Notes under the pieces: model-generated
What the model saw: only the letters and a program-made list of their open reading frames with translations
Database searches by the model: none
Told to the model about the DNA's origin: nothing
Program-made: the position numbers and the translations under genes
NCBI RefSeq assembly: GCF_041886205.1
Contig: NZ_CP169029.1
Direction: 5' to 3' (one strand)
DNA from: Escherichia coli
GTDB taxonomy: Bacteria; Pseudomonadota; Gammaproteobacteria; Enterobacterales; Enterobacteriaceae
Length of the DNA stretch: 64,000 bases
Shown here: positions 4,203 to 63,126 of the stretch, piece after piece
Layout of the letters: every line of letters starts with the position of its first letter
Position numbering within the stretch: the first letter of the stretch is position 1

Positions 4203-7200
4203 TTAATGGAAAATGACGTCGGGTGCGCTTAACGCCTCACTCAAATCAAACACATCAAGTGCGGCAAAAGTGACGGATTTATTGTCACGGTACACCCGAA
4301 GAGAACGGAAGCTCATCAGCGCTTTGCTATCAGCACTGTAGTAGTTAAAACCGGGTGAAAACTTAAGGACCAGCCGGTACTCACCTAAGTCATAGACAAA
4401 TGCGTCCTCATAGCCTGACTCCCAGCCTTTGTATCGCATTCCCATAAGCTGCCCAACGGTAGCGGATTTACCTTCCCAGCGAGTCAGGCTGTTACTGGTT
4501 GACTCGTCAGGTGTGAGCAGCACCGTGCGGCGCGACAACTGGCGAAAAGGCGGCATAATTTCGTAATCGGCAAAAAGCTGTGCAAATTCACTGCGCATTT
4601 CTGCTGTCATTTCTAACGGGTGGGCAATGCCAATCAGAGCGTCCGCAGGCAGGTCAATGGGCTCATCTTGTGCATTGCAGAATTCCCCCTCTGCGGCCAC
4701 ACGAAAGGTGTTGAGTAAACGACGTGGTTCATTTGCCGGATAAACCCCCCATATTAATCGCTGGGTAACCAGGCGGGTAAAGGGATGATTAACAAAAAGA
4801 GAATGAAAATCTGCCAGCGACCAGCGTCGGGTGGTGCGTAGGGCAGTTTCAAGACGCGGGAGCAGGTTTTTGCTCACCTGAGTGGCATCTTTTTTTAGCC
4901 CTTTTAGTCGGGCCAGTGCCTCGGGCGCTTTCAGTTGATCGTCATCGGCGCGCAACCGGGGAACACTTTTCTGGCGAACGTTTTGTTGATCGTAGATAAC
5001 CGGGTTGAGGTTTTCATCGAAGCGAACGGTAAACTGCCGGGGACCAAAATCAAAAATCAACGCCTGCGGATCATCAAGACCCAGTGTTGGGACTAATCTG
5101 TCCGCTAACTCTTCCTGGCTTAGCCCGCGATTTTCTGCGACCACCTGAAGAAATTCCGCTGCGTTTTCACGTAATGAAGAGGATTTCGCCCGTTGTGATA
5201 CATGATGCAGCTGTATCAGCGCCATATCATTATTCATCAGGGTGAGTATATTCAGACCACTGACAGCACGGGCAGATTTGCCTTCTTGTGGCCAAGCGAG
5301 GATCTGTGTTGTTAGATCCCGTGCCGTGCTTTCGTCACCAAAGAGACTTAACGCCAGAAATGCCCAGTTGTCTTTTGCGGGGGCACCAGCTTGTTGCCAT
5401 GCGGTGAAGAGATCCCAGGCAAAAGCTGCCAGCGTTTGCGGCTGGCAGAACGTTTTCAGTTGTTCCAGCCCGCTATAAAAACGTCCCCCTTGGGTAAAGC
5501 GCAGCATTTCGCCAATAATTTCCAGAGCGTCATCGGTAACAGGTTGATTATTAGTGATAAGGCGCGGCCTGGACCACATTTGCGGATGCCAGAAATCAGG
5601 GGCTTTTGGAATGCGTGCCGGGTAAATCTCTATTGGACTCTGTTTAAGTAATTGTTCCAGGGCAGGCCATACATCAGCGCGATCCCAGCGGTTTGCCACG
5701 GTTTGTAGTAATACGCCATGTCCCTGTTCGTAAAGTAAACGCAGGGCAAGTAATGCAGCTTCGCTATTATCGCTGGATTTAGTGAAGACAAGAGGGATAA
5801 GTGCAGTAGCCGTATGTTCCGGCCATTGTAAAATCCACTGGCGAGCCAGATCACGCTGCGCCGCGAAACGTCGCCAGACGCGGGCAACAGGCAGCGCCAG
5901 TTCTGTTGCGCCGAAATGAATCAGCAGCGGAAATATCTCTTGTGGATGTCGGGCAAAGGCGGTGTTTAATCCAGGCAAAGCATCGGTAGCCAGCACACTT
6001 AACAGATATTCCACCCCAGTGTAATGAAAATCAGCATCGACAATTTGTTGCCAGCACGATACCGCCATTTCGCGCGGCATCTGCGCGATAAGGTACAGAT
6101 TCCAAATCCCCCAACGCTTTTCATTACCATAGTAAAATTCGTGCTGAAAAGTTCGCCACCCTTCCATCAACGCAATGCAATCTTGTGCCAGTAATGCTTT
6201 GGTGGCTTCTTCACGATACTGTTTAGATTTGGCCTGATGCGCGTGATAAGTACGCAATAGTCCTATTGATGTGTATTCTTGCAGTTGCTGAGCATCAAAG
6301 GCATCCAACTGTCCATTAAGAAGATGCTTATTAAATTCCAGGCTATGAACGTCAAAACCTAATTCCCGCAAGAAGGTATCCGCCCCTCTCTTAGCAATAC
6401 GTTCGTCAAAAGACATGGCGCTAAAATGGTCAATTGCAGTTTGCTGTTCCGGCGTCCAGTGTTTATTCGGCGACCTGTACGTTTGCGGTGCAAGCGTAAG
6501 ATCAGGCAGCGAAAAGTGAGGTATGGAAGTCTTTTTCTTCCTCCCACGCCATGGTGGTGAAACGAGGATTTCAGGCATTTGGCTGTTATCGGTACTATCA
6601 ATAACCGGTTTGGGCGGTGCCAATAAATAACTATTCAGTACTGCCCGGGCTTGAGTACTTAACCACTGCATCACCTCTTCTGCCAGTTGTGGCTGCGATG
6701 CCATCAGCGTTTGTAACAGCGTACGCCAGTATTCATCTCGAGCTTTTTGCTGGGCAGGCAGCTTTTTGTCTTCGATGATTGGATAACCAGGGCGGGCTGG
6801 TGGTTCTTTTAACGCCAACAGTTCTGCCAGTGCCGCGAGCGTCGCGTGGGGGAAGTTTTTACTGTATTTAGCCACACGTTGCAGGCTGGGTTTGTTTTTA
6901 TCAGCCACCAGTAGCAAGGTGCGGATGACCTGCGGATGGTTAATTTGTACCAACAGACTGCCGCAATCTTCTTTATGGGCATACATCGCGAGGCGCGGAA
7001 TGGCTGCCAGTCCTTGTTCGCGCAAAAGGGCGGCGCAGGCCGCGTAGCCGAAGTGGTTTTCATGCGACATGTAGCTGGCTTCGCGATCGCTAAATATATC
7101 CTGACTCCAGTAGTGATCGAGTTTCCTCACCGCTGTGGGGTCATTAGCAACAACTTTTAGCCACTCCTTAGAATGATAATGAGTCCGTGGGCATTCAAGG

Positions 7201-7850
7201 CCTATCAACTCATTGGCGATTTCTGGTTTTTCCGGGAGGATCAGCGCAATAAAAGGGCGGCGAACTTTGGTTATTCCTGGCAGTGCGGCAATGAGTTTGT
7301 CGGCGCAACGCTGCCAGCAGCTTTCCTCTGCCAGAGAGAGATGCTTACGCAGTCGGAGATCGAATTCGTTATAGGTTTCTGATCGATAACCATAGCCATA
7401 GTCCTCGTTCTGATACTGCAATGTCACTACCAGAGGATCACTCTCATAACACCGCGCAATAAACTGGCGTGCAATCACCACCTCAGTCGCATATTCCAGT
7501 CCCTCTTGTTGGACGATTTCGTCGAGCAACTGTTGGCTGTCATTTTGCGCGATACAGGCTAGTGCCGCCATTGTGCGGGCCGGGACTGAGGGTTTGTGTT
7601 CGCCGATCAAGTTGATGGCCTGCGTAATGGCGGACTGCCACTCCAGTGAAAAATTTTCATAACGCCAGACAATGTTTTTTTTCTTCTCAGCTTTTTGTAG
7701 CAATTCATCACCCAGTGTCTGAATGATGCTTTCAGTGATAACAGGCACCGGTTCGCCCGGCCATTTGCGATGACTGAGTGGTGTTTTGCCTTTTTTATAT
7801 TTCAGTTCCAGTTGGGCGTTATCCGCCAGCCACGGTAATTCCTTGTCCAT
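4203..7850 (-). CDS. yehI: DUF4132-family giant protein lacking a WGR domain (1215 aa)
   Basis: ORF 4203..7850. It is a paralogue of the two upstream genes along its whole length (for example LPWLADNAQ, HLSLAEESCWQRCADKLIAALP, LLPEKPEIA, FDFGPRQFTVRFDENL, FADYEIMPPFRQL). It begins directly at the segment that follows the WGR domain in its paralogues. A 9-nt spacer with AGGAAAG separates it from the upstream stop. Confidence 0.9.
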   Translation of the reverse strand: MDKELPWLADNAQLELKYKKGKTPLSHRKWPGEPVPVITESIIQTLGDELLQKAEKKKNIVWRYENFSLEWQSAITQAINLIGEHKPSVPARTMAALACIAQNDSQQLLDEIVQQEGLEYATEVVIARQFIARCYESDPLVVTLQYQNEDYGYGYRSETYNEFDLRLRKHLSLAEESCWQRCADKLIAALPGITKVRRPFIALILPEKPEIANELIGLECPRTHYHSKEWLKVVANDPTAVRKLDHYWSQDIFSDREASYMSHENHFGYAACAALLREQGLAAIPRLAMYAHKEDCGSLLVQINHPQVIRTLLLVADKNKPSLQRVAKYSKNFPHATLAALAELLALKEPPARPGYPIIEDKKLPAQQKARDEYWRTLLQTLMASQPQLAEEVMQWLSTQARAVLNSYLLAPPKPVIDSTDNSQMPEILVSPPWRGRKKKTSIPHFSLPDLTLAPQTYRSPNKHWTPEQQTAIDHFSAMSFDERIAKRGADTFLRELGFDVHSLEFNKHLLNGQLDAFDAQQLQEYTSIGLLRTYHAHQAKSKQYREEATKALLAQDCIALMEGWRTFQHEFYYGNEKRWGIWNLYLIAQMPREMAVSCWQQIVDADFHYTGVEYLLSVLATDALPGLNTAFARHPQEIFPLLIHFGATELALPVARVWRRFAAQRDLARQWILQWPEHTATALIPLVFTKSSDNSEAALLALRLLYEQGHGVLLQTVANRWDRADVWPALEQLLKQSPIEIYPARIPKAPDFWHPQMWSRPRLITNNQPVTDDALEIIGEMLRFTQGGRFYSGLEQLKTFCQPQTLAAFAWDLFTAWQQAGAPAKDNWAFLALSLFGDESTARDLTTQILAWPQEGKSARAVSGLNILTLMNNDMALIQLHHVSQRAKSSSLRENAAEFLQVVAENRGLSQEELADRLVPTLGLDDPQALIFDFGPRQFTVRFDENLNPVIYDQQNVRQKSVPRLRADDDQLKAPEALARLKGLKKDATQVSKNLLPRLETALRTTRRWSLADFHSLFVNHPFTRLVTQRLIWGVYPANEPRRLLNTFRVAAEGEFCNAQDEPIDLPADALIGIAHPLEMTAEMRSEFAQLFADYEIMPPFRQLSRRTVLLTPDESTSNSLTRWEGKSATVGQLMGMRYKGWESGYEDAFVYDLGEYRLVLKFSPGFNYYSADSKALMSFRSLRVYRDNKSVTFAALDVFDLSEALSAPDVIFH

Positions 7851-7859
7851 GCTCTTTCC

Positions 7860-10800
7860 TTATTCAAACAGGGCTTCAATATCGTTAATTAGCTCGCTGG
7901 CGGTGATGGCATCGAGTACGGAGAACTGCGCTTCCTGTGTTGAATTACTCCCCCAGCCATAGCTTTCCGCTTTGCCTTCCCATAACCACAGCTTGCTTAA
8001 GAGCTGCTCAGCGCTAAGTTCGGCTGGTGACATACCCACCGCAAAACCTTCGTCGATTTCCATGATTAACGACCAGCGACCCAAAGGTTTGATCATCCAT
8101 CCGATCCAGCCTCCATCCTGTGGTTCGCCCTTTATCCAGCCTTTATTCGCCAGCCCCATGACCCGACCACTCGGGCATTTTCTGCCTGCCCAGCGGGTCA
8201 GTTCACTGGCATTGCGCTCGGCTTCTGTCAGGGCGTAGCTGTTACGGTCGAGCTGGCGGAACGGTGGTAGCAGTTCGTAGTCGGCAAAAAGCTGACCAAA
8301 GGCGGCAGCATCCGTTGGTGATATTTCCAGAACGTGAGGAGTGCCGATAGAGATATCGCCTTCCGGCAGGGTGAAAAGATCATCGTCAGCGGTGCTGTAG
8401 CTGTTATCTTCTGCTACGCGAAAGCAAGCCAGTAGCTGGTTTTCGGCGCTATAAACGCCCCAAATCAGACGGCGGGTTAAGTGACGAACCAGCGGATGCT
8501 CAACCAGGAAGAGCTGGAAGTTTTCCAGCGACCAGCGGCGGCGCAGGCACATGGCGGATTCCAGCCTTGCTACCTGCTGGGCGGCGACGGTACGCGCATC
8601 TTTTTTCAGCAGTTTGTAGCGGTTAACAGCATCGTTCGCCTGTGATTCATCATCGCTTTTGTTTGGTTTGGGCAGGTCTTTCAGACGGCTGCCGGAAGCG
8701 TCACGCACAAACGGTTTTAAGGTTTCATCAAAGCTGACGGTGAACTGGCGTGGGCCGAAATCCAGCAGCAACGAACCGTTATCATCCAGACCGAGATCTG
8801 GTGCTAACCGATCTTCAAGCTCCGCCACCGTGAGTTCGCGGCTCTCGGCAATATCGGCAATTTTCTCTTTTGCCCGCTCCTGTAAAGCTTTGAATTTCAG
8901 TTTCTGAGCAATGCCGTTAAGCTGCATCAGAGCAATATCACTACCGATAGCGGCGAGGATATCAAGCCCGACGGTGGCGCGTTTATGCTGGGATTCGCCA
9001 GGCCAGGCGCGGATTAATGGCGTCAGTTTGCGGGCGGTGTCATCGTTACCGAGAACGCCTAACGCAGTGAACGCCCAACTCTCTTTCGACGGCGCGCCAG
9101 CGGTCTGCCAGGCGGTAAACAGATCCCAGGCAAATTCAGCCAGTGAGTCGGCGGTACAGGCGTCTTTCACCTGTAATATTCCCGGATACAGAACCTCTTC
9201 CTGAGGGAAGCGGAGCATTTCACCGAGGTGGAGGAGGGCTCTATCTGGCAGTGATTGGGCGTTTGCTTTTAATACCGGGCGCGTCCAGAGCGATGGTTGA
9301 TAAAAGGCCGGAAGAGTGGGGATTTTTGTCGGGTGATTATCTAAGGGATCGAGCGCAAGCAGAGCGTTCACCGCATCGGTTACTTCCGGCTGGTTATAAC
9401 GTCGGGCGATTTCTTGCAGTAATGGCTGATGACCGTTTTCGGTAAGCATACGCAAGGCAGCGCGGGCGTTATCCTGTGCTTCACCGGCTTTGCCGAGCGC
9501 CGCAGGCAGCAGGCCGGTAAGGGCATGTTCCGGGTATTTCAACAGCCAGCTACGGGCGTTTTCGCGTAGCGTTTTGAGTTTGTTGAAGGCACGGGCAATC
9601 AGTGGCGCTAATTCGATAGCCGCAAAATATTGTGCTACAGGCAGCGCTTCTTGCGGATAGCGAGATGCTGAGTGGATAAAACCTGTTAAACCAGCAAGTC
9701 GAAGATGCAACATTACTTGTGTTGCACCTGTATGTGGTTCTTTACTAAGGATGTTCCACATCTCGATAGCTTTATTAATGGGTAAAACATGGAGTGAAGA
9801 AAGATTCCATTCGCCCTGATAAGGGGAGTTATAGGACTTAAAAGCATCAATCAGCGCTGAATAATCTTCACGCTGCAAGGCATCCAGTGCTATTTCTGGA
9901 ACATCAATATAGCCTCTATGTTTGTTCCAATCCCAGCGGTTGAATCCCAGGGAGGTCAGAAAAGCTTTTTCTCCCTCAGCTTGCTGATGAGGTTGCCAGT
10001 TATGCTGCACTTGCAGTGTTTTGCTTTTTGTTTCATTTATTGTACAGAAGGATTCTAGGGATAATGGTGCTAAATCCAGCACCGAAATCGTCGATTTTTT
10101 CTTTTTAGCCAGCCAGGGCGGTGAGACTAATACGGCAGGCAGCATATCAGCGTTCGCATAAACTGAAGGTTGTGTCAGTTGTTGCTGGCATGACTTAAGA
10201 ACGGTAACTGCCGGGGCAGATAGCCAGGAGATTACCCGTTCTGCTAATGTTGGTTGTGAGATAAGCATTGTCATTAGCATCATGCGCCAGCGCTTTTCAT
10301 CTTTTTTTGCCAGAAGTTCTGCTAATGCCGCCAGCGCTGCATGTGGAAAGCGAACGAAAGCCTTTGTCATGCGATCGTGGCAACGCTTTCCCTGCTCGCT
10401 TGCATGGATAAGTAGTGTAAGTGCCTGCGGGTGGTTGATATGCATCAACACTTCACCACATGTGTCACCAGCAGCGTAAGGAGCAAAACGGGCCAGCGCA
10501 GCGACACCTTGCTCCTTGAGTATCGTTGCGCACCAGATTTTACCTCCGTAATAATCATCAAATACCTGCCCAGGCTGTCCTGGATAGTATTTTCCCAGTT
10601 CTGCCAATACCTGCTCGTCAGCGGCCGTCAGTTTTAGCCATTCCAGCGCATATAACCCTTTTTGTCCGCAAAGATGTCTGGCAATCTCATGAGCTATTTC
10701 TGGTTTTTCCGGCAACAATAGTGCAACCAGCGGCTGGTGCCAGGTGGGCATGTTTCCGAGAGCGGCAATCAGTTTGTCGGCGCAGCGCTGCCATACATCG

Positions 10801-11618
10801 TCATTTGCAAGTGAGAGATGCTTACGCAGGCGCATTTCAACCGAAGCGAAGCGTAACAGATAGCCAGGCTGCCTGTTATCCGGGGTAACCGTAATGAGAT
10901 GGGCATCATAATCCCAGTCGAAGCGGATGAATTGCAATGCAATGACAACCTCAGTGGCATATTCCAGACCACCTTCCTGGACAATTTGATCCATTAACTC
11001 TTCATGATCGTTACGATTGAAGCCTTGTTCCAGCGCAACCAGTACCGCCAGTACCATCGGAGGTAGCGTGGTGCTAATTGGCGAGTCGATAAGGCCTACT
11101 GCTTGTGTAATTGCCTGCTGCCAGTCGAGTGAACAGGTACTGTAATCGAAGGTGAGCACCTTTTTAAAACGCCGGTGAGTATTCGCGGCAACGGTGCGTA
11201 GCAGGGTTAATTCATCCTCCTGCTGCACCGGATCGCCAGGCCAGCGTCGATGACTGAGTGTGGTTGGCGCAATCTCTGTCGGTAACATGATTTGGGCACC
11301 GTCTGCCAGCCAGGGGAGGAGGTCACCAGCAAATGCTGGTTTGTCTTGTGGCAAAGGGGTAATTTCAGGGCATTCAATAACCTGGCCGGGTGCAAATGTC
11401 GCTGTCATCACGGATACTTCTTCTACGTAGCCCTTTTTTGTTTTCTCCGCAATCAGCTTCAGCTCCGCTTTTTCCGCCGCCGCAGCATCTGCAAAGCTTT
11501 TTACCTGACTTTGCCCGTTACTGCCGACTTTACCCCAGTTAATATGCAGCTCGTTTCCCTGCTGCTCCACCGCCCAGAATTTATGTGATTTTTCGTCCTG
11601 ATAAATATAGGTTTTCAT
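7860..11618 (-). CDS. Intact WGR-domain + DUF4132 giant protein (1252 aa), molR-like
   Basis: ORF 7860..11618. The N-terminus MKTYIYQDEKSHKFWAVEQQGNELHINWGKVGSNGQSQVKSF...KKGY is a WGR-type module with a WGK variant of the WGR motif. The remainder is collinear with yehI. A 12-nt spacer with AAGGA precedes the ATG. Confidence 0.9.
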   Translation of the reverse strand: MKTYIYQDEKSHKFWAVEQQGNELHINWGKVGSNGQSQVKSFADAAAAEKAELKLIAEKTKKGYVEEVSVMTATFAPGQVIECPEITPLPQDKPAFAGDLLPWLADGAQIMLPTEIAPTTLSHRRWPGDPVQQEDELTLLRTVAANTHRRFKKVLTFDYSTCSLDWQQAITQAVGLIDSPISTTLPPMVLAVLVALEQGFNRNDHEELMDQIVQEGGLEYATEVVIALQFIRFDWDYDAHLITVTPDNRQPGYLLRFASVEMRLRKHLSLANDDVWQRCADKLIAALGNMPTWHQPLVALLLPEKPEIAHEIARHLCGQKGLYALEWLKLTAADEQVLAELGKYYPGQPGQVFDDYYGGKIWCATILKEQGVAALARFAPYAAGDTCGEVLMHINHPQALTLLIHASEQGKRCHDRMTKAFVRFPHAALAALAELLAKKDEKRWRMMLMTMLISQPTLAERVISWLSAPAVTVLKSCQQQLTQPSVYANADMLPAVLVSPPWLAKKKKSTISVLDLAPLSLESFCTINETKSKTLQVQHNWQPHQQAEGEKAFLTSLGFNRWDWNKHRGYIDVPEIALDALQREDYSALIDAFKSYNSPYQGEWNLSSLHVLPINKAIEMWNILSKEPHTGATQVMLHLRLAGLTGFIHSASRYPQEALPVAQYFAAIELAPLIARAFNKLKTLRENARSWLLKYPEHALTGLLPAALGKAGEAQDNARAALRMLTENGHQPLLQEIARRYNQPEVTDAVNALLALDPLDNHPTKIPTLPAFYQPSLWTRPVLKANAQSLPDRALLHLGEMLRFPQEEVLYPGILQVKDACTADSLAEFAWDLFTAWQTAGAPSKESWAFTALGVLGNDDTARKLTPLIRAWPGESQHKRATVGLDILAAIGSDIALMQLNGIAQKLKFKALQERAKEKIADIAESRELTVAELEDRLAPDLGLDDNGSLLLDFGPRQFTVSFDETLKPFVRDASGSRLKDLPKPNKSDDESQANDAVNRYKLLKKDARTVAAQQVARLESAMCLRRRWSLENFQLFLVEHPLVRHLTRRLIWGVYSAENQLLACFRVAEDNSYSTADDDLFTLPEGDISIGTPHVLEISPTDAAAFGQLFADYELLPPFRQLDRNSYALTEAERNASELTRWAGRKCPSGRVMGLANKGWIKGEPQDGGWIGWMIKPLGRWSLIMEIDEGFAVGMSPAELSAEQLLSKLWLWEGKAESYGWGSNSTQEAQFSVLDAITASELINDIEALFE

Positions 11619-11630
11619 TGCTAAATCCTT

Positions 11631-14600
11631 TTAATCAAACAGTGATTCAATATCGTTAATCAGCTCGCTGGCGGTGATGTCGTCGAGCACGGAGAAGGGA
11701 TAAACCGATTTGCGCGGCGTCAGTTTGCACAACTGAATGTGCTCAATTTTTTGGCTATCGCTGATTTCGGTGACGGGCAATCCAACGCAGAAGCCTGGTG
11801 TCACACTCAGTTCGACGTAGCCATCATCCACAGATTTATAAAATGAGTAATAGCCGCCACCATCCAGCACATCGCCCCGTTGCCAGCCTTTATTCATCAG
11901 CCCGGCGACGCGCCCACTCGCTGCCTGGCGACCAGCCCAGCGCTGCAAATCGCTGCTGCTTTTTTCTGTCTCAGAGAGCTGAGACCAGGGGCGATCAAGT
12001 TGACTGAATGGTGGCAATAGTTCGTAGTCAGAGAACAGTTGTGCAAATTCAGCAGCCTGCGGGGCCGGGATTTCCAGTACATGCGGGATACCGATACTGC
12101 CCTGCGCAAGGGTTAACGGGTTATCCTGACCGTCGCTAAAACTGCCATCCTCCGCCACGCGGAAACAGGAAATAAGCTGATTATCAGCGTCATAAATGCC
12201 CCACATCAGACGTTGGGTGATATGACGAACCAGGGGATGCTCAACCAGAAACAGGCGGAACTGTTCTGCAGTCCAGCGGCGACGCTGACACATGGCGGCT
12301 TCCAGACGCGAAATCTGTTGTGCAGCTACCGTGCGGACATCTTTTTTCAACAACTTGTAGCGATTTACCGCTTCCTCAGCCAGCGTTTCATCATCGCTTT
12401 TGTTCGGTTTGGGCAGATCTTTCAGACGGTTGCCGGAAGCTTCGCGCACAAACGGTTTTAAGGATTCATCAAAGCTGACGGTGAACAGGCGTGGGCCGAA
12501 ATCCAGCAGTAGTGAGCCGTTATCATCCAGACCGAGATCGGGGGCTAACCGGTCTTCCATCTCTGCGACGGTGAGCTGGCGGCTTTCGGCAATCTGGGCG
12601 ATTTTAGTTCTAGCCTGATCCTGCAAGGCTTTAAATTTTAGCTTTTGCGCAATACCGTTAAGTTGCATCAGGGCGATATCGCTGCCGATAGCAGCAAGAA
12701 TATCCAGCCCGACAGTGGCGCGTTTATGCTGAGATTCCCCCGGCCATGCGCGGATGAGCGGGGTGAGTTTGCGGGCGGTGTCATCGTTACCCAGAATCCC
12801 CAGTGCGGTAAATGCCCAGTTATCTTTGGCTGACCCGCTTGCAATCTCCCAGCTCAAGAAGAGATCCCAGGCGAAATCGGCAAGAGACTGCGGGGTACAG
12901 GCCTCGATTACCTGTGTTATCCCCGGGTAAAGGGTGGCTTCGCGGGGAAAAGAGAGCATGGTGCACAGTTGCAGGATAGCTGAATCCGGAAGTGCCTTGC
13001 CGTTACTGCGCAGAAGCGGGCGGTGCCATACTTCAGGGGTACACCAGGCGGGGAGTTTAGCGATTTTCTGCGGAAAATTATCGAGGGGGTCGCTGTTAAG
13101 AACATCTAACAAACCCGTAAGCACTTCTGCCTGATTATAGCGGTGGGCAATTTCTTCCATTAACGGCTGATGCCCATGATGAGCCAGATAGCGAATTGCC
13201 GTAGCGGCGTCTTCACGCTCACTACCTGCTTTTCCCAGCACGGAAGGCAGCAGGCCCGTAATGGCATGTTCCGGATAGGTTAACAACCAACGTTCAGCAA
13301 CATCACGTACAGATTTAAGCTGACGAAAGGCGCGAGCCATTAAGGGGGCTACTTCGGTTGCGCCAAAACGTGCCGCTAAAGGAATGGCTTCCTGAGGTAC
13401 GACTAAGGCGCGACGCAGCAAGCCGGGCAATGTCGGAAGACCGTAATATTCCACTACTTCACATGCGTTAATCAGATGTAGGTGAGTCAGTGCGTTCCAT
13501 ATTTTCAGTGCTTTATTTTCTGATAACTGAAGCAATACCGACACATTGACAAGGATATGACTTGCCCACCGAGGTTTATCCCAGATCTTTAATAAAGCTT
13601 CGTAATTGTCCTGCTCGAAAAAATCAATGGCAGCCTGAGGTATACCCCAACCAAGCTCTTCGCAATGGAAGTTCAACAAATCCAGGATATCTTTCGCTGA
13701 TGGGGATGGCGCAGATGGCTCAGTCAGATTTTTTGTTGCGGGGATAGATTCAGGGGGGGAAGAGGTAATACCCGGAGAGTGAGGTTGATACCAGCAATCT
13801 TTTTCTTTTTTTCCAACCATGAAGGGGCGATCAATATACTGGGTAATTCATTCTTATGAGCAATTTTTTCGATGGACATAAGCTGAGGAAAATAACTAAA
13901 TAAAATTTGTTGCTGTTTTTCGTCAAGCCAGGGAAGCGTTTTATGTAAGGCTTGCGCATTACCCAAGATGATGCGCTGCAGTAAACGATAATAGTGAGAG
14001 TTATTTGTGTAATTTAAGGCTTTTGTTAATGCATAAAGTGCAGCTTCAGGATGTAAATTTGTTGCGTGTTCCACTTCACTGATACATTCTTCTTTTATTA
14101 ATATATTAATGGCGTCAGGATGATTAACTTGTGTAATTAGATTTTTAACTGAATAACTATCCTTTATCCATGGCTGAAGAAGTGGAAGAGCTTTTACCCC
14201 TCGTTCACGCAGTAATGTCGCAGTGCATTTTTCCGCCGTCTGCCAGTCGTTATAGCGCTTAAGTTGGTTAAGATTCATCAATTCATTGAGTGCCTGCGGA
14301 TCTGTGGCAACGATATCCAACCATTCCATTTCTGGGTAATTAGCACATTGCACTAAGTCAAAGACAATTTGATTAGCAATTTCAGGTTGTTCAGGCAAAA
14401 GAAAACCTATTAAAGGGCGTTTACGTGGAGACAGGGAAGGCAACGCTTGAGTAAGCTTTTTCATGCACCGTTGCCATGTTTTTTCATCAATACGCGAGAG
14501 ATGATTTCGCAAGTGAAAATCTACAGTGCTGAAGCCGAATTCAAAACGTTGTTCTGATATTGTGTTACTTAGAATAAGCGTTGGTACGCAATTTTTTGTA

Positions 14601-15370
14601 AAAAAATTGTATCCCATGCGAACATACAAAAGGCATTTATCTAAAGCTTCACAATTTCCCGGATCTTGATTTTGATCATCTGATATCTGAATTTGCTGTA
14701 ATAGCAAGACTAATTCGGTCGCGTATTCTACCCCATGCTGTTGCGCCAGATAATCAAAAAGATCATTAGCGCTATCGCTATCTTGCATAAGAAACTTGAC
14801 CAGCAAAAAGAATGCATTGGAGAAAATCGAACCGTCTATATTTTTCTGCTGAACGCGCATGATTGCTTCATCCCGGCCTCGTTGCCATTCCGGGCGGCAG
14901 TCACTCACATCAAAATGCTGTAATTGTGCAAGAAAATAGTATTCCTCATATTTGTTTTCCCATAAGAGTGACCATAACGAGATATCTTTAGCAAACGTCC
15001 TGACACTGTCGGCTGGGAATTTCCTACTGCTAAATACTCTCTTTGTTTCGAGAATGATTGGTTCAAGGTCCGCAATCCACGGTGGTGTGTCGACATCAGT
15101 AATAATTGGATGTTGTTCGCTATCATCAGCTGTGGTGGGAACAGTTATCAGCATGTTTATATCGTCAGTCGATTTTACATACCCCTTCTTCACCTTCTCC
15201 GCAATCAACTTCAGCTCCGCTTTTTCCGCCGTTGCAGCATCCGCAAAACTTTTTACCTGGCTTTGCCCTTGGGTGCCAACTTTTCCCCAACTGATATGCA
15301 ACTCGTTTCCCTGTTGCTCCACCGCCCAGAATTTATGTGATTTTTCGTCCTGATAGATAAAGCGTCTCAT
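11631..15370 (-). pseudogene. molR: WGR + DUF4132 paralogue with a broken reading frame (molR/yehH-like)
   Basis: Two ORFs, 15370->13724 (548 codons, WGR N-terminus MRRFIYQDEKSHKFWAVEQQGNELHISWGKVG...) and 13820->11631 (729 codons), overlap by 97 nt in different frames. Joined, they are collinear with the 1252-aa neighbour. The downstream frame is -1 relative to the upstream frame. The gene symbol is tentative. Confidence 0.75.
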
Positions 15371-22932: not shown

Positions 22933-22941
22933 GTCTTTCCG
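22933..22941. repeat. IS1 target-site duplication, left copy (GTCTTTCCG)
   Basis: The identical 9-mer recurs at 23710..23718, immediately flanking the IS1 ends. Confidence 0.95.
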
Positions 22942-22956
22942 GGTAATGACTCCAAC

Positions 22957-23460
22957 TTATTGATAGTGTTTTATGTTCAGATAATGCCCGATAACTTTGT
23001 CATGCAGCTCCACCGATTTTGAGAACGACAGTGACTTCCTGCCCAGCCTTGCCAGATGCTGCCTCAGATTCAGGTTATGCCGCTCAATGCGCTGCGTATA
23101 TCGCTTGCTGATAACGTGCAGTTCTCCCTTCAGGCGTGATTCATAAAGCGGCCAGCCATCCGTCATCCATACCACGACCTCAAAGGCCGACAGCAGGCCC
23201 AGAAGACGCTCCAGCGTCGCCATAGTGCGTTCACCGAATACGTGCGCAACAACCGTCTTCCGGAGCCTGTCATACGCGTAAAACAGCCAGCGCTGGCGCG
23301 ATTTAGCCCCGACATAGCCCCACTGTTCGTCCATTTCCGCGCAGACGATGACGTCACTGCCCGGCTGTATGCGCGAGGTTACCGACTGCGGCCTGAGTTT
23401 TTTAAGTGACGTAAAATCGTGTTGAGGCCAACGCCCATAATGCGGGCAGTTGCCCGGCAT
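22957..23460 (-). CDS. insB: IS1 InsB' frame, expressed as the InsAB' transposase by -1 frameshifting
   Basis: ORF 22957..23460 overlaps the insA 3' end. The slippery A6C lies in the overlap. Confidence 0.9.
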
Positions 23461-23654
23461 CCAACGCCATTCATGGCCATATCAATGATTTTCTGGTGCG
23501 TACCGGGTTGAGAAGCGGTGTAAGTGAACTGCAGTTGCCATGTTTTACGGCAGTGAGAGCAGAGATAGCGCTGATGTCCGGCGGTGCTTTTGCCGTTACG
23601 TACCACCCCGTCAGTAGCTGAACAGGAGGGACAGCTGATAGAAACAGAAGCCAC
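23379..23654 (-). CDS. insA: IS1 InsA (91 aa)
   Basis: [46 protein letters not shown]..., the canonical IS1 InsA zinc-finger/HTH protein. Confidence 0.95.
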
Positions 23655-23709
23655 TGGAGCACCTCAAAAACACCATCATACACTAAATCAGTAAGTTGGC
23701 AGCATCACC

Positions 23710-23718
23710 GTCTTTCCG
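23710..23718. repeat. IS1 target-site duplication, right copy (GTCTTTCCG)
   Basis: See the left copy at 22933..22941. Confidence 0.95.
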
Positions 23719-25880: not shown

Positions 25881-26727
25881 TCACATTATGCCCATGAAGC
25901 CATGTACGCCCATATACACACCGACTAAGCCAATCAACAGACTGGAAAAATAGGGGGCGCGTTTAGCGAGAGTGTTAAATCCGCTCCAGCGTTTTGCGAC
26001 CTGCTGAACGCTGATTGCTGCGCCAACGCCTACGGTGACAAGCGTTAACGCCAGGCCAATGCTGAAACTGACGACCAGTGTTGCGCCCAGTGTCAGGGCT
26101 TTCAACTGAATGCATATCAACAGCACGGTAATTGCTGCCGGGCAGGGGATAAGGCCACCGGTTAAGCCAAATAACAAAATTTGCCAGTTGGTGACCTCTC
26201 TACCATCAAAGCGTCGTTTAATGTCATTGGCATGGGCTCGTGCATGGGCATCCTGATACTCGCCATGTTCGTGATGGTGATGATGTCCATGGTCGAGGTG
26301 ATGTTCGTGGTCTTGATGATGTTCGTGATCGTGATGATGGTGATGATGCTCATAATCATGCCCGTGCATATTCTCCAGCCAGTTGCGTTCGCCGCGCCAG
26401 GTACGCCAGAACATCCAGAACGCGGTGCCAATAATGATCACTGCGGAAATCAGCTGGAGCCACGGTTCTGCTGATTGAGCAGTAAAGCGCTTACTGATCA
26501 CCATCCCGCCAAAGGCAATCAACCAGACCACCGCGGTATGCGAAATGGTTGCTGCCAGTCCGAGCATCACCGCCTGTTTAATGGTGCCTTTGGATGGCGA
26601 TGATAAACGCCGCCATCATCGTTTTTGAGTGCCCTGGTTCCAGGCCATGAAGCGCACCAAGTAAGATGGCGCTGGGGATGAAGAACCAGGCGTTTCCTTG
26701 CTGAAGAAGAGTTGTAAATTCGGTCAT
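25881..26727 (-). pseudogene. rcnA: Ni/Co efflux protein RcnA with a frameshift after codon ~45
   Basis: ATG 26727 reads MTEFTTLLQQGNAWFFIPSAILLGALHGLEPGHSKTMMAAFIIAI, then QRHH-stop at 26578-26580. The rest of the protein (…KGTIKQAVMLGLAATISHTAVVW…, the His-rich loop, …GFMGIM) continues in another frame to 25881. The junction is at CCATCCAAAGG (about 26592). Confidence 0.8.
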
Positions 26728-26764: not shown

Positions 26765-26799
26765 TACTCCCCCCCAGTACCTGATACTCCCCCCCAGTA
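26765..26799. promoter_or_regulatory. Two tandem RcnR operator sites (TACT-C7-AGTA) in the rcnA-rcnR divergent promoter
   Basis: TACTCCCCCCCAGTA occurs at 26765..26779 and again at 26785..26799. This matches the G/C-tract inverted repeat described for RcnR binding (recalled). Confidence 0.8.
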
Positions 26800-49289: not shown

Positions 49290-52200
49290 TTACTCGGTTA
49301 CCGTTTGTTTAGGTTTACGCGAAAAACGCAGCCGCAGACGGTCGAAAAAGAGATACACCACCGGCGTGGTATACAGCGTAAGGAGCTGGCTCATTACCAG
49401 TCCGCCGACAATGGTGATCCCCAGGGGTTGCCGCAGCTCCGAGCCGTCGCCGCCCGACAATACCAGCGGCAGCGCACCAAACAGCGCCGCCAGGGTAGTC
49501 ATCATAATCGGGCGAAAACGCAGCAGACAGGCCTGGAAAATAGCTTCCTGCGGCGTCAGGTTACCGTGCCGTTGGGCTTCAAGCGCAAAATCGACCATCA
49601 TAATGGCGTTTTTCTTCACGATGCCGATTAATAGCATGATCCCTATCAGGGCGATTAGGCTGAACGGGGCATTGAACAGCTCCAGCGCCAACAGCGCTCC
49701 AACGCCCGCCGAGGGCAGGGTGGAGAGAATCGTCAGCGGATGTACGTAACTCTCGTAAAGGATACCCAGCACGATATACACCGTGGCGATGGCGGCGATA
49801 ATCAGGATCACCTGCGAGTTCATCGTCTCCTGGAACACCTGCGCCGTGCCGGCAAAACTGCCGCGCACCGTCGAAGGCACACCAAGCTGGGTCATTGCGC
49901 GATCGATCGCCGCACTGGCGTCCGAGAGCGATTTTCCGGTCGGCAGGTTAAACGAAATGGTCGAGGCCGCCGATAATCCCTGATGATTCACCGATAGTGG
50001 GGCATTCGCCGGTTGCCATTTAGCGAAATACGACAGCGGGATCGCTTTGCCTTCGTTATTGATAACGAACATTTTTTCCAGCGCACTGATGTCCTGGGTA
50101 TAGCGCGGATCCACTTCCATCACCACTTTATACTGGTTCATCGGCTGGTAAATGGTCGAGATTTGCCGCTGACCGAAGGCGTTATTTAACAGACTGTTGG
50201 CGGCTTGTACGTCGATTCCCAGCCGTGCCATGGTGTCGCGGTCGTAAACCAGATTCATCTCCGCGCCGTTATCCTGCTGATCGGAGTTCACGTCCGCCAG
50301 TTCCGGCAACGTCGCCAGTTTTTTGCGGATTTTCGGCTCCCATTCTCGCAGTGCCGCCAGGTCGTCGGATAACAACGTGTACTGGTAGCTGGCGTTCGAC
50401 TGACGCCCACCAACGCGAATATCCTGTACCGCCATCAGGAACAGATTCGCCCCCGGTTCTTTCGCCAGTTTTACGCGCAGACGGTCGATAATTTGCTGCG
50501 CCGTTTCGCTGCGTTCGTCGCGTGGCTTGAGGGTGATAAACATCATCCCGCTGTTCACTCGCGAACCGCCTGTAAAGCCGGTGACATTATCCACTGCCGG
50601 ATCGTCACGGATAATTTTCATGAAATCCTGCAACTTACCGCGCATCGCCTGAAACGAAATACTCTGATCCGCCTGAATCCCGCCCATCAACACGCCAGTG
50701 TCCTGCTCCGGGAAGAAGGTTTTCGGGATCGAGATATACAGCCAGATATTCAGCGCAATGGTGCCAAGCAGCACCACGCCCACCAGATGGGTATGATTGA
50801 GCACCCATTTCAGTGACTTGCCGTAGCCTTGTTGCAGGGCTACCAACATGCGACCAAAACCACGCAGTCGCTTTTGCTCGCGCGGCTTGCTGGCTTTCAG
50901 CATCCAGCCACACATCATTGGCGTTAATGTCAGAGAAACCAGCAACGATATACCAATGGCGACAGAAAGCGTCACGGCAAATTCGCGTAACAGTCGGCCC
51001 GGCAATCCGCCCATCAACAGCAGCGGCAGGAACACCGCCACCAGTGACAGACTCATCGACAGCACCGTAAAACCGACTTCGCGAGTACCTTGCAGTGCGG
51101 CTTGCAACGGTTTCATTCCCGCTTCCAGATGACGTGCAATGTTTTCCAGCACCACGATGGCGTCATCCACCACGAAACCAGTAGCGATGGTGAGCGCCAT
51201 TAACGAAAGGTTATTGAGACTGAATCCGCACAGGTACATCGCCGCAAACGTACCAATCAGCGAAACCGGCACCGAAACGGCGGGAATAATAGTGGCGCGA
51301 CCCGAGCGCAGGAATAAAAACACCACCAGAATCACCAGCGCCACCGAGATAATCAGCGTTTGCTCGACTTCTTCCAGCGAGGCGCGAATGGTGGGGGAGC
51401 GATCCTGGGCAATTTGCAGATCAATCGCCGCCGGAATGGTTTCCTGCAACTCCGGTAATTTTGCCCGGATGCTGTCAACCGTCTGGATAATATTGGCTTC
51501 CGGCAGTTTGCGGATCATCAGTAAAATAGCCGGTTTGGCGTTGGTCATCCCGGCGTTGCGCACATCCTGCACTGAGTCGGTCACCGTCGCCACATCGCCC
51601 AGACGAACCGCGCCGCCGTTGTTGTAGTGAATAATCAACGGCTGATATTCAGCGGCGGTTTTTAGCTCATCATTGGTCTGGATCTGCCAGCGGTGAGTGC
51701 CATCTTCCAGCGCGCCCTGCGGTTTACGCACGTTGGCATTGCTGACGGCGGTGCGTACGTCGTCCAGCGACACGCCCTGATTAAACAGCGCCTGCGGATT
51801 CAGCCCGACGCGTACGGCGGGCAGTGAGCTGCCTCCGACATCGACATCACCAACACCGTCGATTTGCGAAATTGTCGGAGCCAGCTGCGTCGAGGCGAAA
51901 TCGTACAGTTCACCCTGCGAATAAGTATCGGACGTCAGCGTGAGGATCATAATTGGCGCATCCGACGGGTTCGCTTTGCGATAGGTCGGGCGGCTGGGCA
52001 TCCCACTGGGCAGCAAACTTTGTGCAGCGTTGATCGCCGCCTGCACATCACGCGCTGCGCCGTTGATATCCCGGTCAAAATCAAACTGCAAAATAATACG
52101 CGTGCTGCCGAGCGAACTGCTGGAGGTCATTTCACTGACTCCGGCAATGCGCCCAAGTGAGCGCTCCAGCGGCGTGGCAACGGAAGACGCCATTGTTTCT

Positions 52201-52367
52201 GGTGACGCACCGGGCAGCGAGGCGCTGACCATAATCACCGGAAAATCGACCTGCGGCAGCGGGGCGACCGGCAGCATACGGAAGCCCAGTATGCCGCACA
52301 GGGTAATGGCAACCGACAGTAAAATCGTCGCCACCGGACGGTAAATGAAGAGGGCAAAAAACTTCAC
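49290..52367 (-). CDS. mdtC: RND efflux pump subunit MdtC
   Basis: 1025-aa RND permease. Confidence 0.95.
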
Positions 52368-55300
52368 TTACGCCTCCTCTTCATGACGGGCAAAGCGGCT
52401 TTTGGTCCACAATGCCAGGCGGTCGAACAGCAGATAAATCACCGGCGTGGTGAACAGCGTCAGCACCTGGCTGACAATCAGGCCGCCGACCATGCCGATA
52501 CCTAACGGACGACGCAGTTCCGCGCCGACCCCGGTACTCAACATCAGCGGCAGCGCGCCAAGCAGAGCCGCCAGGGTGGTCATCAGGATCGGACGAAAAC
52601 GCAACAGACAAGCCTGGTAGATTGCCTCGCGCGGCGACATGCCTTGCTCGCGCTCGGCAGCCAGCGCGAAGTCGATCATCATGATGGCGTTCTTCTTCAC
52701 GATACCGATCAGCAAAATAATGCCGATAATCGCAATCACATCCAGTTCGCTACCAGCAATCAGCAACGCCAGCAGTGCGCCAACCCCTGCGGTGGGTAGC
52801 GTCGAGAGAATGGTGATCGGGTGAATAAAGCTCTCGTACAGAATGCCGAGCACGATATACATCGCCACCACCGCCGCGACAATCAGCCAGACAGTGCTGC
52901 CCAGCGCCGACTGGAAGGCGAGGGTGCTGCCCTGGAACTGCGTGGTGATATCCACCGGCAGATTCAGCGTCTTTTCGGTGTCCATAATCGCCTGCACCGC
53001 ATCGCCCAGCGAATAGTTATCCGGCACGTTAAAGGAGATGGTCGTTACCGGGAACTGATCCAGATGGTTGATGGAGAGCGGCGCAAAACGCTGCTCAATT
53101 TTGGCAATTGAGCTTAGCGGCACCACGCCGCCGTCGCTGCTGGTCAGGCGAATGGTATCCAGCGCCGCGAGGCCTGGGGTATTTTCGGTGTTGTGCTCCA
53201 GCACCACGCGATACTGGTTGGCCTGAGTATAAATAGTGGAAATCAGCCGCTGACCAAACGCGTTGTACAGGGCGTTATCGACATCCGCCATGCTGATCCC
53301 CAGACGGCTGGCGCTGTCGCGATCAACATTGACATACGCCACCAGCCCTTTGTCCTGCCAGTCGCTGGAGACATCAGAAAGCTGTGGCAGTTGCTGGAGT
53401 TTTTCCATCAACTGTGGCACCCAGGTACTGAGCGCATCCAGTGACGTGGCCTGCAAGGTAAACTGGTACTGGGTGCGGCTGACCTGAGTATCAATAGTCA
53501 GATCCTGCGTTGGTTGCAGGAAGAGATCGACGCCCGGCACTTTATCTACCGCCGTTTGCAGACGGGCGATGACTTTTTGCACCCGATCATCACGTTCATC
53601 CAACGGTTTGAGGTTGATTTGTAAACGTGCACTGTTCAGCGACGGGTTAGTGCCATCAACGCCAACAAATGAGGTCAGGCTTTGCACTGCCGGATCCTGC
53701 AAAATCACGTCCGCGACCTGGCGTTGTCGCTGGGCCATATTGGCAAAGGAGCTGGATTGCGGTGCCTGCAAAGTGCCCTGAATAATGCCATTGTCCTGTA
53801 CCGGGAAGAAACCTTTCGGAATGAACACCCACAGCAGCACGCTAAGCAGCAGCGTGCTGAGTGCCACGCTTAAGGTCAGCCACGGATGATTCAGCACTTT
53901 CGCCAGTCCACGACCATAGGCGGCGATTATCCTGTCGAACATTTTTTCCGAGGCACGGGAGAAGCGGTTCTGTTTACGCAACGACTCCTGGCTGAGCATC
54001 CGCGCGCACATCATCGGTGTCAGGGTCAGCGACACCACCGCTGAGATCAAAATCGCTACCGCCAGGGTAATAGCAAATTCGCGGAACAGTCGCCCGACGA
54101 TATCGCCCATAAACAGCAGTGGGATCAACACCGCAATCAGTGAGAAGGTCAGCGAGATAATGGTAAAGCCGATTTCACCTGCGCCCTTGAGCGCCGCCGC
54201 CAACGGTTTTTCGCCTTTTTCGATATAGCGGGAAATGTTTTCGATCACCACGATGGCGTCATCGACCACGAATCCGGTGGCGATAGTTAACGCCATCAGT
54301 GTCAGGTTATTGATTGAAAAATCGAGAAACACCATAACCGCGAAAGTGCCGATTAACGACAGCGGTACAGCAACACCGGGAATGATGGTCGCCGGAATAT
54401 TGCGCAAAAACAGGTAGATAATCATGACTACCAGCGCGATAGCCATCATCAATTCAAACTGAGTATCATCGACGGATGCGCGGATATTGGTGGTGCGATC
54501 GGAAAGCACTGTCACCTTCACCGATTTCGGCAGACTCTCAGTGAGCTGTGGCAGCATCTGCCGAATGCTGTCGGCGGTGGAGATAATGTTAGCACCGGGC
54601 TGGCGCTGAACATTCATCACAATGGCCTGTTCTTTGTTCGCCCACGCGCCGAGCCAGCTGTTTTCTGCACCTTGCTCTACAGTTGCGACATCGCCCAGAC
54701 GAATTGGCGCGCCGTTCTGGTAGGCGATGATTAGCTGGCGATACTCTTCGGCGGATTGCATCTGGTCGTTCGCGGAAAGCGTGACCGCACGGGAAGGGCC
54801 GTCGAGGCTACCTTTTGCCGAGTTAACGTTAGCGCCGGTAATGGCGGTGCGCACGGTTTCGCTGGTCAGGCCGAGGGCGGCAATCGCCTGAGCGTTAAGT
54901 TTGACGCGAACAGCCGGACGCTGACCGCCGGAAAGCGTCACCAGGCCGACGCCGGAAATCTGCGAGATTTTCTGCGCGACGCGGGTTTCCACCATATCTT
55001 CCACTTGCGTCATCGGCATGGCGGTTGAGGTGACGGCGAGCGTCATGATCGGCGGATCTGCCGGGTTCACTTTGCTGTAAACCGGCGGGTTAGGCAGATC
55101 GCTCGGCAACAAGTTGGTCGCAGCGTTAATCGCGGCCTGCACTTCCTGCTCGGCGACATCGAGCGGTAATGTTAGCTGGAACTGCAAAGTGATAACTGAC
55201 GCACCGCCGGAACTTTGCGACGACATCTGTTTCAGGCCAGACATCTGCCCGAACTGGCGTTCTAGCGGCGCGGTAACGGCAGAGGTCATGACATCCGGGC

Positions 55301-55490
55301 TGGCACCTGGGTAGAGCGTGACCACCTGAATGGTCGGATAGTCCACTTCCGGCAGCGCCGAAACGGGCAGGGCGCGATAACCGATAATCCCGGCGAGTAA
55401 GATCGCCACCATCAGCAGCGTGGTGGCCACAGGACGCATAATAAACAGGCGCGACGGGCCGCCTGTGCTGCTCGGGGGTAACACCTGCAT
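52368..55490 (-). CDS. mdtB: RND efflux pump subunit MdtB
   Basis: 1040-aa RND permease. Its start shares 1 nt with the mdtA stop (TGATG). Confidence 0.95.
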
Positions 55491-56737
55491 CAGGAGCGTG
55501 CTCCTTTTTTCGCGTATTCGCGGCTGGTGGCTTTCTCTTCCGGAGTAGTGGCGCTCTGGGCTTCCACCACTTCCACTTTCGCCCCTTCGGTCAGGCGATC
55601 AATGCCGTCTGTCACCACGCGATCGCCCGCAGAAATACCTGCACGGATCACCACTTTCTGACTGTCCTGAATGCCCGGCGTCACCAGATGTTTGCTGACC
55701 TTGTTTTCGCTATTCAGCACCCAGACAAAATGGCCTTCATTGCCCATTTGCAGGGCGGCTGTTGGGATCACTACGGCGTTTTGTTCGGTGTCGACTAACA
55801 TGCGCGCGTTAACAAACTGATTGGGAAACAGCGCATCATCCTGATTATTAAAGCGTGCTTTCACTTTAATCGTACCGGTAGTGGCATCGATTTGGTTATC
55901 TAGACTTAACAGCGTGCCTTCACTTAATTTCTTCGAGTTGGTGCGATCCCAGGCTTCTACCACCAGCGGTTTTCCGGCTTTCTGCGCCTGCACTACGGTA
56001 GCGATATCGCTTTCCGGCAGGGTAAAGACTAAATCGATAGGATGCGTCTGGGTGATCACCACGATCCCGGTGGTATCACCACTGGAGATTTGGTTACCAA
56101 CATCAACCTGCTTGAGACCAACGCGACCATCGACTGGTGCGGTAATCCGGCTCCAGTCGAGTTGCAGCTGCGCGCTGGCAACGCTTGCTTCATCAGCCTT
56201 AATGGTGCCTTCGGTTTCACTGACCAGCGCCTGTTGGGCATCCAGCTCCTGGCGGGAAACGAGATTGGTTTTTGCCAGTTGTTGATAACGCGCCAGGTCA
56301 CGGCGGGCGTTGGCAAGCGTGGCTTTATCTTTTGCCAGTTGGCCCTGGGCTTGTGCTAATGCAACTTTGAACTGGCTGGGGTCAATTTCTGCCAGTAAAT
56401 CGCCTGCTTTGACCTGCTGGCCTTCCTGGAAATGTAACGCTATCAGTTGGCCGTCCACGCGGCTGCGCACCGTAACGGTATTAGCGGCGGTAATGGTGCC
56501 AAGCCCGGTGAGGTAACGCGGAACTGCCTGTTCTACGGCGGTCGCCGCCTGAACCGGGGCTAATGGGCCGGAACGCATACCACGTCGACCACCCGCTGGC
56601 GATTGCTGCGCTTGTTTCGTCGCCCCTGGGGCTGCACTCCGGGAGTCATTGCGGCCTTGCCAGAACCAGAATGCGGCGATGGCGGCGATAACCACCACGA
56701 TTACGATTACCCAACGGGATTTATAACTACCTTTCAT
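55490..56737 (-). CDS. mdtA: RND membrane-fusion protein MdtA (415 aa)
   Basis: ORF 55490..56884. The start is taken at [23 protein letters not shown]. Confidence 0.93.
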
Positions 56738-56790
56738 CGTTAAGAGTTTCTCTTCCTGAAACGTTTCGCGGAATGATACTAGTGTAGCCA

Positions 56791-56808
56791 GCCAATAAGG
56801 GAGAAAAA
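56791..56808 (-). promoter_or_regulatory. BaeR-box-like sequence upstream of mdtA
   Basis: The minus strand reads TTTTTCTCCCTTATTGGC. This is close to the BaeR consensus TTTTTCTCCATDATTGGC as I recall it. It lies about 55-70 nt upstream of the mdtA ATG. Confidence 0.6.
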
Positions 56809-56971
56809 TGGAGGAATTATGAAACACTGTCTGGAATCGTCTGAATGACGGGCACATTTGCGAGCACGCATCCAGTAATAACACAGGAAACTATTTTATC
56901 TACGCGTTAGCGATAGACTGCTTGCATGGCGAAAGGAGGTAAGCCGACGATTTCAGCGGGACGCTGAAACG

Positions 56972-57108
56972 GGAAAGCCCCTCCCGAGGAAGGGGCCATA
57001 AATAAGGAAAGGGTCATGATGAAGCTACTCATCATCGTGGTGCTCTTAGTCATAAGCTTCCCCGCTTACTAAGACTACCAGGGCGGGGGAAACCCCGCTC
57101 TACCCTCA
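56972..57108 (-). ncRNA. Sib antisense antitoxin sRNA, copy 1 (ends approximate, +/-10 nt)
   Basis: Minus-strand promoter: TTGACA (57143-57138), a 17-nt spacer, TACTTT (57120-57115). The terminator hairpin GCCCCTTCC/GGGAGGGGC (56977-56996) is followed by TTTCCC. It is fully antisense to the ibs ORF. Confidence 0.7.
57016..57072 (+). CDS. ibsB: Ibs-family hydrophobic toxin peptide, MMKLLIIVVLLVISFPAY (18 aa)
   Basis: A short ORF with AAGG upstream. Its sequence equals the recalled IbsB-type peptide. Assigning A/B symbols within a 4-copy array is arbitrary. Confidence 0.8.
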   Translation: MMKLLIIVVLLVISFPAY

Positions 57109-57299
57109 CTCCTGAAAGTATGCCTTCACGATAAGATTGTCAATCCGCAGGCTTTGTAGTCTGCGATCCTGCCAGCAAATATTCTTTGCGAGTCGTTACG
57201 CAATAATCACAGAGGAAACTATTTTATTCACGCGTTAGCGATAGACTGCATTCAGGGCGAAAGGAGGTAAGCCGATGATTTCAGCGGGACGCTGAAACG

Positions 57300-57437
57300 G
57301 GAAAGCCTCTCCCGGAGAAGAGGGCTTTTAATAAGGAAAGGGTTATGATGAAGCTACTCATCATCGTGGTGCTCTTAGTGATTAGCTACCCAGCATACTA
57401 AGACTACCAGGGCGGGGGAAACCCCGCTCTACCCTCA
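57300..57437 (-). ncRNA. Sib antisense sRNA, copy 2 (ends approximate)
   Basis: TTGACA (57472-57467), 17 nt, TACTTT (57449-57444). The terminator hairpin is a variant with a bulge (AGCCTCTCCCGGAGAAGAGGGCT). Confidence 0.65.
57345..57401 (+). CDS. Ibs-family toxin peptide, MMKLLIIVVLLVISYPAY
   Basis: The equivalent ORF in repeat unit 2. Confidence 0.75.
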   Translation: MMKLLIIVVLLVISYPAY

Positions 57438-61629: not shown

Positions 61630-61640
61630 GCCATTTTCTT

Positions 61641-63079: not shown

Positions 63080-63126
63080 GCGTCTGAATAACGTTTATGC
63101 TGAAAGCGGATGAATAAGGAGATGCG

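Follow-up and report, generated by a model that had tools for sequence, protein, structure and literature searches.

The closest described counterpart of the gene considered here is yehF/yehH (molR) of Escherichia coli K-12, a member of the WGR-DUF4132 family found immediately after metG and before yehI-yehK-yehLMPQ. In K-12 this gene is split into a WGR-bearing N-terminal open reading frame (ORF) and a dead remainder, and molR/yehH has been listed as "disrupted in K12" (PMC3950696). A literature search on the function of DUF4132 and WGR returned nothing helpful on mechanism. In a 64,000-nucleotide (nt) stretch of E. coli chromosome (contig NZ_CP169029.1 of assembly GCF_041886205.1; here called the window), the same position is held by copy 1, the metG-adjacent member of the yehF/yehH (molR)-yehI array, and copy 1 is also read as two ORFs, with WGR in the first and DUF4132 in the second. 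The K-12 allele differs (the common allele group, of 1262 amino acids [aa], has ~47% protein identity to the copy 1 allele), and its lesions lie elsewhere (yehF ends at 274 aa, and the frame changes near residue 948). Whereas the K-12 disruption is fixed and well documented, the break in copy 1 is a singleton of one base, and the 1246-aa allele that carries it is otherwise intact. With a K-12 equivalent that is already a known pseudogene, the finding is an ordinary one.

In the assembly, copy 1 reads as a single intact gene frameshifted by one indel. The nearest complete genome, NZ_AP045833.1, carries one intact 3741-nt gene at this locus, encoding the 1246-aa protein WP_001252237.1, and the window and this gene are identical over 1650 nt upstream and 2152 nt downstream, the sole difference being one base. 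In the mRNA sense, CCCCCCCTGGAATC in the intact alleles corresponds to CCCCCCCTGAATC in the window, with one G of TGG absent (Table 1). The lost G is one of the two at the boundary between codons L540 (CTG) and E541 (GAA), directly 3' of a C7 run and inside no run itself. This is the lone gap in alignments to the loci from NZ_AP045833.1 (L001) and from six other sources (L004, L005, and L014 to L017), with no compensating indel. On the plus strand, intact alleles read ...TTCCAGGGGGGG..., and the loss changes CCAGG to CAGG in the window, which destroys a Dcm site. The deleted C falls in a CCAGG whose inner C is the methylated base, and the affected CCWGG site overlaps the sole G/C run of at least 7 nt in the left 23 kb of the window. 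Both ORFs are collinear with one intact homolog, and Pfam matches place WGR at residues 7 to 68 of the upstream ORF and DUF4132 at residues 463 to 646 of the 729-aa downstream ORF.

The frame arithmetic agrees with a one-base loss. The upstream ORF ends in ...LPLPPLNLSPQQKI, with the terminus KKKKIAGINLTLRVLPLPPLNLSPQQKI-TGA and its stop codon at 13726-13724, while the downstream ORF (13820..11631, minus strand; 729 aa) opens at an ATG at 13820. The overlap of these two minus-strand ORFs is 97 nt. Relative to the upstream ORF, the codon phase of the downstream ORF is shifted 1 nt in the 5' direction [(13820 - 13726) mod 3 = 1], which is the -1 frame that loss of one nucleotide would give. An earlier reading of this DNA made without database searches (the sequence-only reading) had reported an upstream frame ending at 13724, a downstream frame open from 13820, and a -1 phase that would fit loss of one nucleotide or gain of two; every one of these coordinates, and the arithmetic for the loss of one nucleotide, was verified. 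The overlap itself is composed of an 8-codon tail in the old frame and 23 codons of the new frame that are open by chance upstream of the lesion. The triplet ATG at 13820, which is out of frame in the native gene, is not a genuine start codon; inspection found no Shine-Dalgarno-like sequence before it, the bases just upstream being CGCCCCTTC.

Three homopolymer tracts in the overlap had also been singled out by the sequence-only reading, which located a C7 run, an A6 run, and an A-rich lysine stretch correctly (the last is A7-G-A5-G, at 13812-13799) and pointed to them as likely slippage sites. That interpretation does not survive comparison with intact alleles. The lost G lies outside the tracts, and C7, A6, and A7 are unchanged base by base, so homopolymer slippage was rejected as the cause. 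Seven intact alleles have the same A7, A5, C7, and A6 as the window (two of them, L009 and L010, are identical to each other here). The allele of GF4-3 has TC6 and A8, both of which arose via substitutions that keep the overall length, and it stays in frame. Runs of at least 7 nt are dense in the overlap (two within 97 nt versus 18 across the whole 64 kb) which is explained by what they encode, Lys (KKKK) for the A runs and Pro-Pro for C7; a family alignment of nine sequences (35 to 77% identity) shows no variation at W518, K521, or K522. Homopolymers near a frame break are thus no evidence of slippage, and in copy 1 the lesion sits beside the runs.

A second 1-nt loss in this segment was seen in MB53 (L012, NZ_CP073939.1; locus ~2500-2730), where C6 stands in place of C7, at most 10 nt from the deletion in the window. 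The MB53 copy was already truncated at its 5' end by an IS1-associated deletion and lies beside IS1 and ISVsa5 elements. Its C6 could reflect a spot prone to indels or one prone to sequencing error. As a further and improbable step, if the deletion in the window is real, the C7-TGG segment might be read as a local indel hotspot in a fast-evolving tandem array, with two independent 1-nt losses, one in the window and one in MB53.

The deletion is private to one assembly. Among 5,426 complete E. coli genomes, nine contain the segment around the site, and in all eight that cover it fully the segment is 302 nt long versus 301 nt in the window, with sequences that confirm TGG and C7 (TC6 in GF4-3). 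A metagenome contig also reads C7-TGG. Closer still are members of the same clone, which were found via YegI, the copy 2 protein, and the truncated YehB. Three draft genomes (GCA_012373595.2, GCA_011032045.1, and GCA_036252715.1) match the window over 13.6 to 15.8 kb with 0 mismatches, and the missing G is the sole gap. In these three loci, which were retrieved via the copy 2 protein, the gene upstream was called intact at 1246 aa. The truncated YehB product that results from the IS1 insertion of the window was found in a further draft, GCA_000303635.2, and in short-read (Logan) contigs; the scaffold of this draft has the same IS1 junction, aligns with the window across 12,077 nt, and retains TGG. 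At the other end of the window, contigs of two such drafts and of one Logan read-set assembly (L036 to L038) are 100% identical to positions 49689-64000. Across the ~35 kb compared with clone-mates, the one base in copy 1 is the only difference. MdtB and GatZ were also tried as clone-mate markers and were dropped as too widespread; they returned loci of 97.7 to 99.8% identity.

Broader searches gave the same picture. The exact 548-aa and 729-aa products are absent from a collection of ~15 billion proteins, and a pattern scan that allowed either TG or TGG had 0 matches in the GTDB species representatives and one metagenome match, which has TGG. The two-frame arrangement was found in no relative examined: orthologs are all single 1246-aa ORFs, and orthologs and paralogs together are single ORFs of 1215 to 1278 aa.

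We consider an error of base calling or assembly consensus to be the single most likely cause of the frame break, with roughly even chances of being correct. In such an event, a base would have been dropped in the Dcm-methylated CCWGG overlapping the G7/C7 homopolymer, splitting the 1246-aa gene at codons 540/541. Dcm motifs and, after them, homopolymers were the chief classes of nanopore consensus error (PMC6591954). The window resembles these errors in that the missing base falls in a CCAGG/CCTGG overlapping a 7-nt G/C run, a known error-prone context, and is the sole difference within the clone, a singleton against independent same-clone assemblies (L014 to L017; 12 to 15.8 kb, 0 mismatches apart from the gap). 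It is unlike them in that the length of the homopolymer itself is right and no other such error was detected in the window. The window also spans a 768-bp IS1 uninterrupted and without Ns, and two short-read contigs (L017 and L018) end in or at IS1; because the window passes through IS1 where short-read contigs stop, this suggests that the source assembly was built from long reads. The chief rival is that the deletion is real, a very recent and isolate-private loss-of-function frameshift that would have made copy 1 a pseudogene, which we regard as quite possible if somewhat short of an even chance. Against a real deletion stand its singleton status, the retention of the G in every examined assembly of the identical haplotype, and the classic sequencing-error context of the base. 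One indel with zero single-nucleotide polymorphisms in ~35 kb would also seem a better fit to technical error than to natural divergence. Spontaneous 1-nt deletions favor long runs, so a natural deletion would be expected in C7 and not in the adjacent GG doublet. Several observations nevertheless weigh against an error. Elsewhere the assembly looks clean: over the left 22.9 kb, a close relative agrees at 72 of 73 Dcm sites and at every one of the 30 homopolymers of at least 6 nt, and between 27 and 64 kb no other coding-region indel was found, all indels there being intergenic. Differences from a 98.8%-identical genome fall at Dcm sites no more often than expected (6/459, or 1.3%, versus 1.27%). 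A systematic Dcm-associated assembly error was rejected for this lack of enrichment, and because of that lack the evidence for an error comes from the one site. Repeat collapse or mis-assembly of paralogs was rejected as well, since the 301-nt segment occurs once per genome and copies 1 and 2 are only ~86% identical over ~190 nt at their ends; a site that occurs once per genome favors a real mutation to the extent that repeat collapse cannot explain the change. Genuine inactivations are also present within 13 kb in this lineage (yehB, interrupted by IS1 between 9-bp target duplicates, and rcnA, with a shared frameshift), and in MB53 the truncated remnant has a 1-nt loss of its own, with C6 for C7, a few bases from this site. 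The gene family decays readily, with yehF/yehH of K-12 being a pseudogene, and the metG-proximal copy has been broken independently in K-12 at other positions (PMC3950696).

Whatever its cause, the break is no regulated or heritable switch. The sequence-only reading had offered a fixed pseudogenizing mutation, a sequencing or assembly error, a phase-variable switch, and recoding or slippage. From that list, mutation and sequencing or assembly error remain, without the word "fixed," as the deletion is private to one assembly; the other two fail the refutation criterion that the reading itself had set, given that intact orthologs differ from the window by one G outside the tracts and have equal tract lengths. 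Taken jointly, phase variation and programmed recoding deserve very little probability at most. A phase-variable switch, in which slipped-strand mispairing in C7, A6, or A7 toggles the gene on and off, appears extremely improbable. The window is like contingency loci in having short homopolymers (three within 97 nt) in a variable, tandemly duplicated gene family, in an array whose copy number varies among the strains examined, and the contrast between C6 in MB53 and C7 elsewhere could be taken in the same sense. It is unlike them in that the indel lies outside the tracts, so that the off state would come with no change in tract length, and in that tract length is constant in intact alleles: C7 is present in every examined intact allele with an uninterrupted C run, and TC6 in GF4-3 has the same length by substitution. 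C6 was seen only in the copy that the IS1-associated deletion had already shortened, and tracts of at most 7 nt are, on general grounds, short for efficient slippage in mismatch-repair-proficient E. coli. Programmed recoding, by which a -1 frameshift at A_AAA_AAG or transcriptional slippage on A7 or C7 would normally make the full-length protein, also seems very improbable. Like sites of dnaX-type -1 frameshifting, the overlap has this slippery heptamer in the correct frame and leading into the -1 ORF, open from 13820, and lysine slippery sites in E. coli can correct nearby 1-nt deletions translationally, with 25 to 60% efficiency in an overexpression vector (PMC1851650). Unlike dnaX-type sites, copy 1 has neither the upstream Shine-Dalgarno-like stimulator nor the downstream hairpin. 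By inspection, no Shine-Dalgarno-like element lies 10 to 14 nt upstream, and the adjacent GGTTGG is not at stimulatory spacing; the 90 nt downstream contain no stimulatory structure (minimum free energy, -8.3 kcal/mol; z = +0.85; 157 of 200 shuffled sequences fold as well or better). Nor is the heptamer conserved in paralogs: it is in frame only in this allele group and is missing in copy 2 and in K-12 yehI, and a scan of copy 3 reported nothing. The two-frame layout is in no relative, and a slip would swap residues 523 to 540, including the invariant L532, L535, and L537. As for transcriptional slippage, an A/T run of ~9 nt or more at the junction is generally taken to be needed for RNA polymerase to slip efficiently, and the longest runs here, A7 and C7, are below this length.

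The heptamer is best described as incidental and as no programmed signal, offering at most incidental leakiness. If the deletion is real, there is a small chance that a few percent of ribosomes slip -1 at the heptamer, 54 nt upstream, and make some 1246-aa protein in which residues 523 to 540 change from KKIAGINLTLRVLPLPPL to EKDCWYQPHSPGITSSPP, an adventitious correction. Such a slip would give the junction ...WLEKK-EKDCWYQPHSPGITSSPP-ESIPATK..., with the junction peptide EKDCWYQPHSPGITSSPPESIPATK, and the full-length protein from it would probably be low level and defective.

Table 1. Positions in the window of the copy 1 lesion, the sequence motifs around it, the array genes, and two other inactivated genes. 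Bases of motifs are given as in the mRNA.
Feature	Position	Strand	Remarks
Lesion	13751..13751	-	Single G where every intact allele has GG
C7 (G7 on plus strand)	13753..13759	-	Encodes Pro538-Pro539; length unaltered
A6	13729..13734	-	A6 in 9/9 compared sequences
A7-G-A5-G	13799..13812	-	Encodes E520-K521-K522-K523-K524, the family KKKK motif
A_AAA_AAG heptamer	13805..13811	-	Upstream frame, codons 521-522, within overlap
ATG opening downstream ORF	13818..13820	-	Out-of-frame triplet of native gene, within ...TCA TGG TTG...
Copy 1 upstream ORF	13724..15370	-	548 aa; native residues 1-540, then 8 out-of-frame residues (NLSPQQKI) and TGA
Copy 1 remainder	11631..13750	-	Native residues 541-1246, including DUF4132; now -1 relative to upstream part
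Copy 2	7860..11618	-	Intact WGR-DUF4132, 1252 aa; starts 12 nt past copy 1 end
Copy 3	4203..7850	-	Intact YehI type, 1215 aa; starts 9 nt past copy 2 end; L004 annotation used
IS1 in yehB	22942-23709		Complete, 768 bp, with InsA and InsB ORFs; usher gene yehB interrupted
rcnA (nickel/cobalt efflux)	~26578-26727 and 25881-26567	-	Frameshifted near codon 46; 49-aa and 228-aa ORFs

Copy 1 is followed by two intact paralogs in an array set among yehQ/P/M/L/K, the three tandem WGR-DUF4132 genes, metG, apbC, and yehE-A; the gene order of the window then continues with rcnBA/R, thiMD, the gat operon, baeSR, mdtABCD, yegI, and alkA. Pfam finds both WGR and DUF4132 in copy 2 and DUF4132 only in copy 3, and the exact copy 2 protein is present on 21 other contigs. 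Read literally, the sequence of copy 1 would yield a 548-aa fragment with WGR only and leave the DUF4132 part untranslated. A real deletion would leave a long untranslated stretch, and this might lower expression of copies 2 and 3 through polarity, as they follow at gaps of 12 and 9 nt and are probably cotranscribed from the molR promoter, which is activated by BglJ-RcsB (PMC3950696). Redundancy would be likely, both paralogs being intact. The biological weight of the finding is very slight: at most, a single isolate lacks one of three paralogs, at a locus whose decay in K-12 is already known. For annotation, copy 1 is best flagged as "frameshifted, possibly a sequencing error," and not as two genes or as a candidate for recoding or phase variation.

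Copy number in the WGR-DUF4132 array beside yehK-yehLMPQ varies among the strains examined (window positions 4203-15370 and loci L001 to L011), and the annotation often marks array copies in these loci as frameshifted or partial. Otherwise divergent groups of paralogs are almost the same over their C-terminal ~400 residues, a pattern that suggests gene conversion. Annotation of the array is inconsistent in places. In NZ_CP104123.1 (L009) and NZ_CP159689.1 (L010), the orthologous gene is identical and one base differs, in the next copy downstream; the annotations conflict, with an intact 1246-aa coding sequence in one versus three "incomplete" pseudogene fragments in the other. The ortholog in USMARC-49610 appeared to be fragmented, but its sequence is identical to that of the intact gene of Z142-6, and this was set aside as an annotation inconsistency with no decay.

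The insertion in yehB is flanked by a target duplication, GTCTTTCCG, at 22933-22941 and 23710-23718. IS1 is missing at that point in the close complete genomes, and the junction is common to GCA_000303635.2 and short-read (Logan) contigs; because these have the same junction, the insertion marks a clone. Strain wlxctx60 has an identical rcnA sequence, annotated there as "frameshifted," and the collection index lists the 228-aa fragment in 208 blocks. Unlike copy 1 with its singleton break, rcnA is therefore a genuine pseudogene throughout the lineage. Two C7 runs, at 26769-26775 and 26789-26795, lie in the intergenic region between rcnR and rcnA and may resemble the G/C-tract operator sites of RcnR.

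Relative to the set of complete genomes, the sequence is a mosaic. The left 23 kb of the window is ~99.97% identical to two complete genomes, and its right 25 kb (39000-64000) is at most 98.9% identical to any; both parts are matched exactly by the drafts GCA_011032045.1 and GCA_012373595.2. Within the right part, positions ~56850-58150 contain four tandem repeat units of ~330 bp with Ibs-family type I toxin genes. The number of these units varies by strain; the loci compared carry from two to four Ibs genes.

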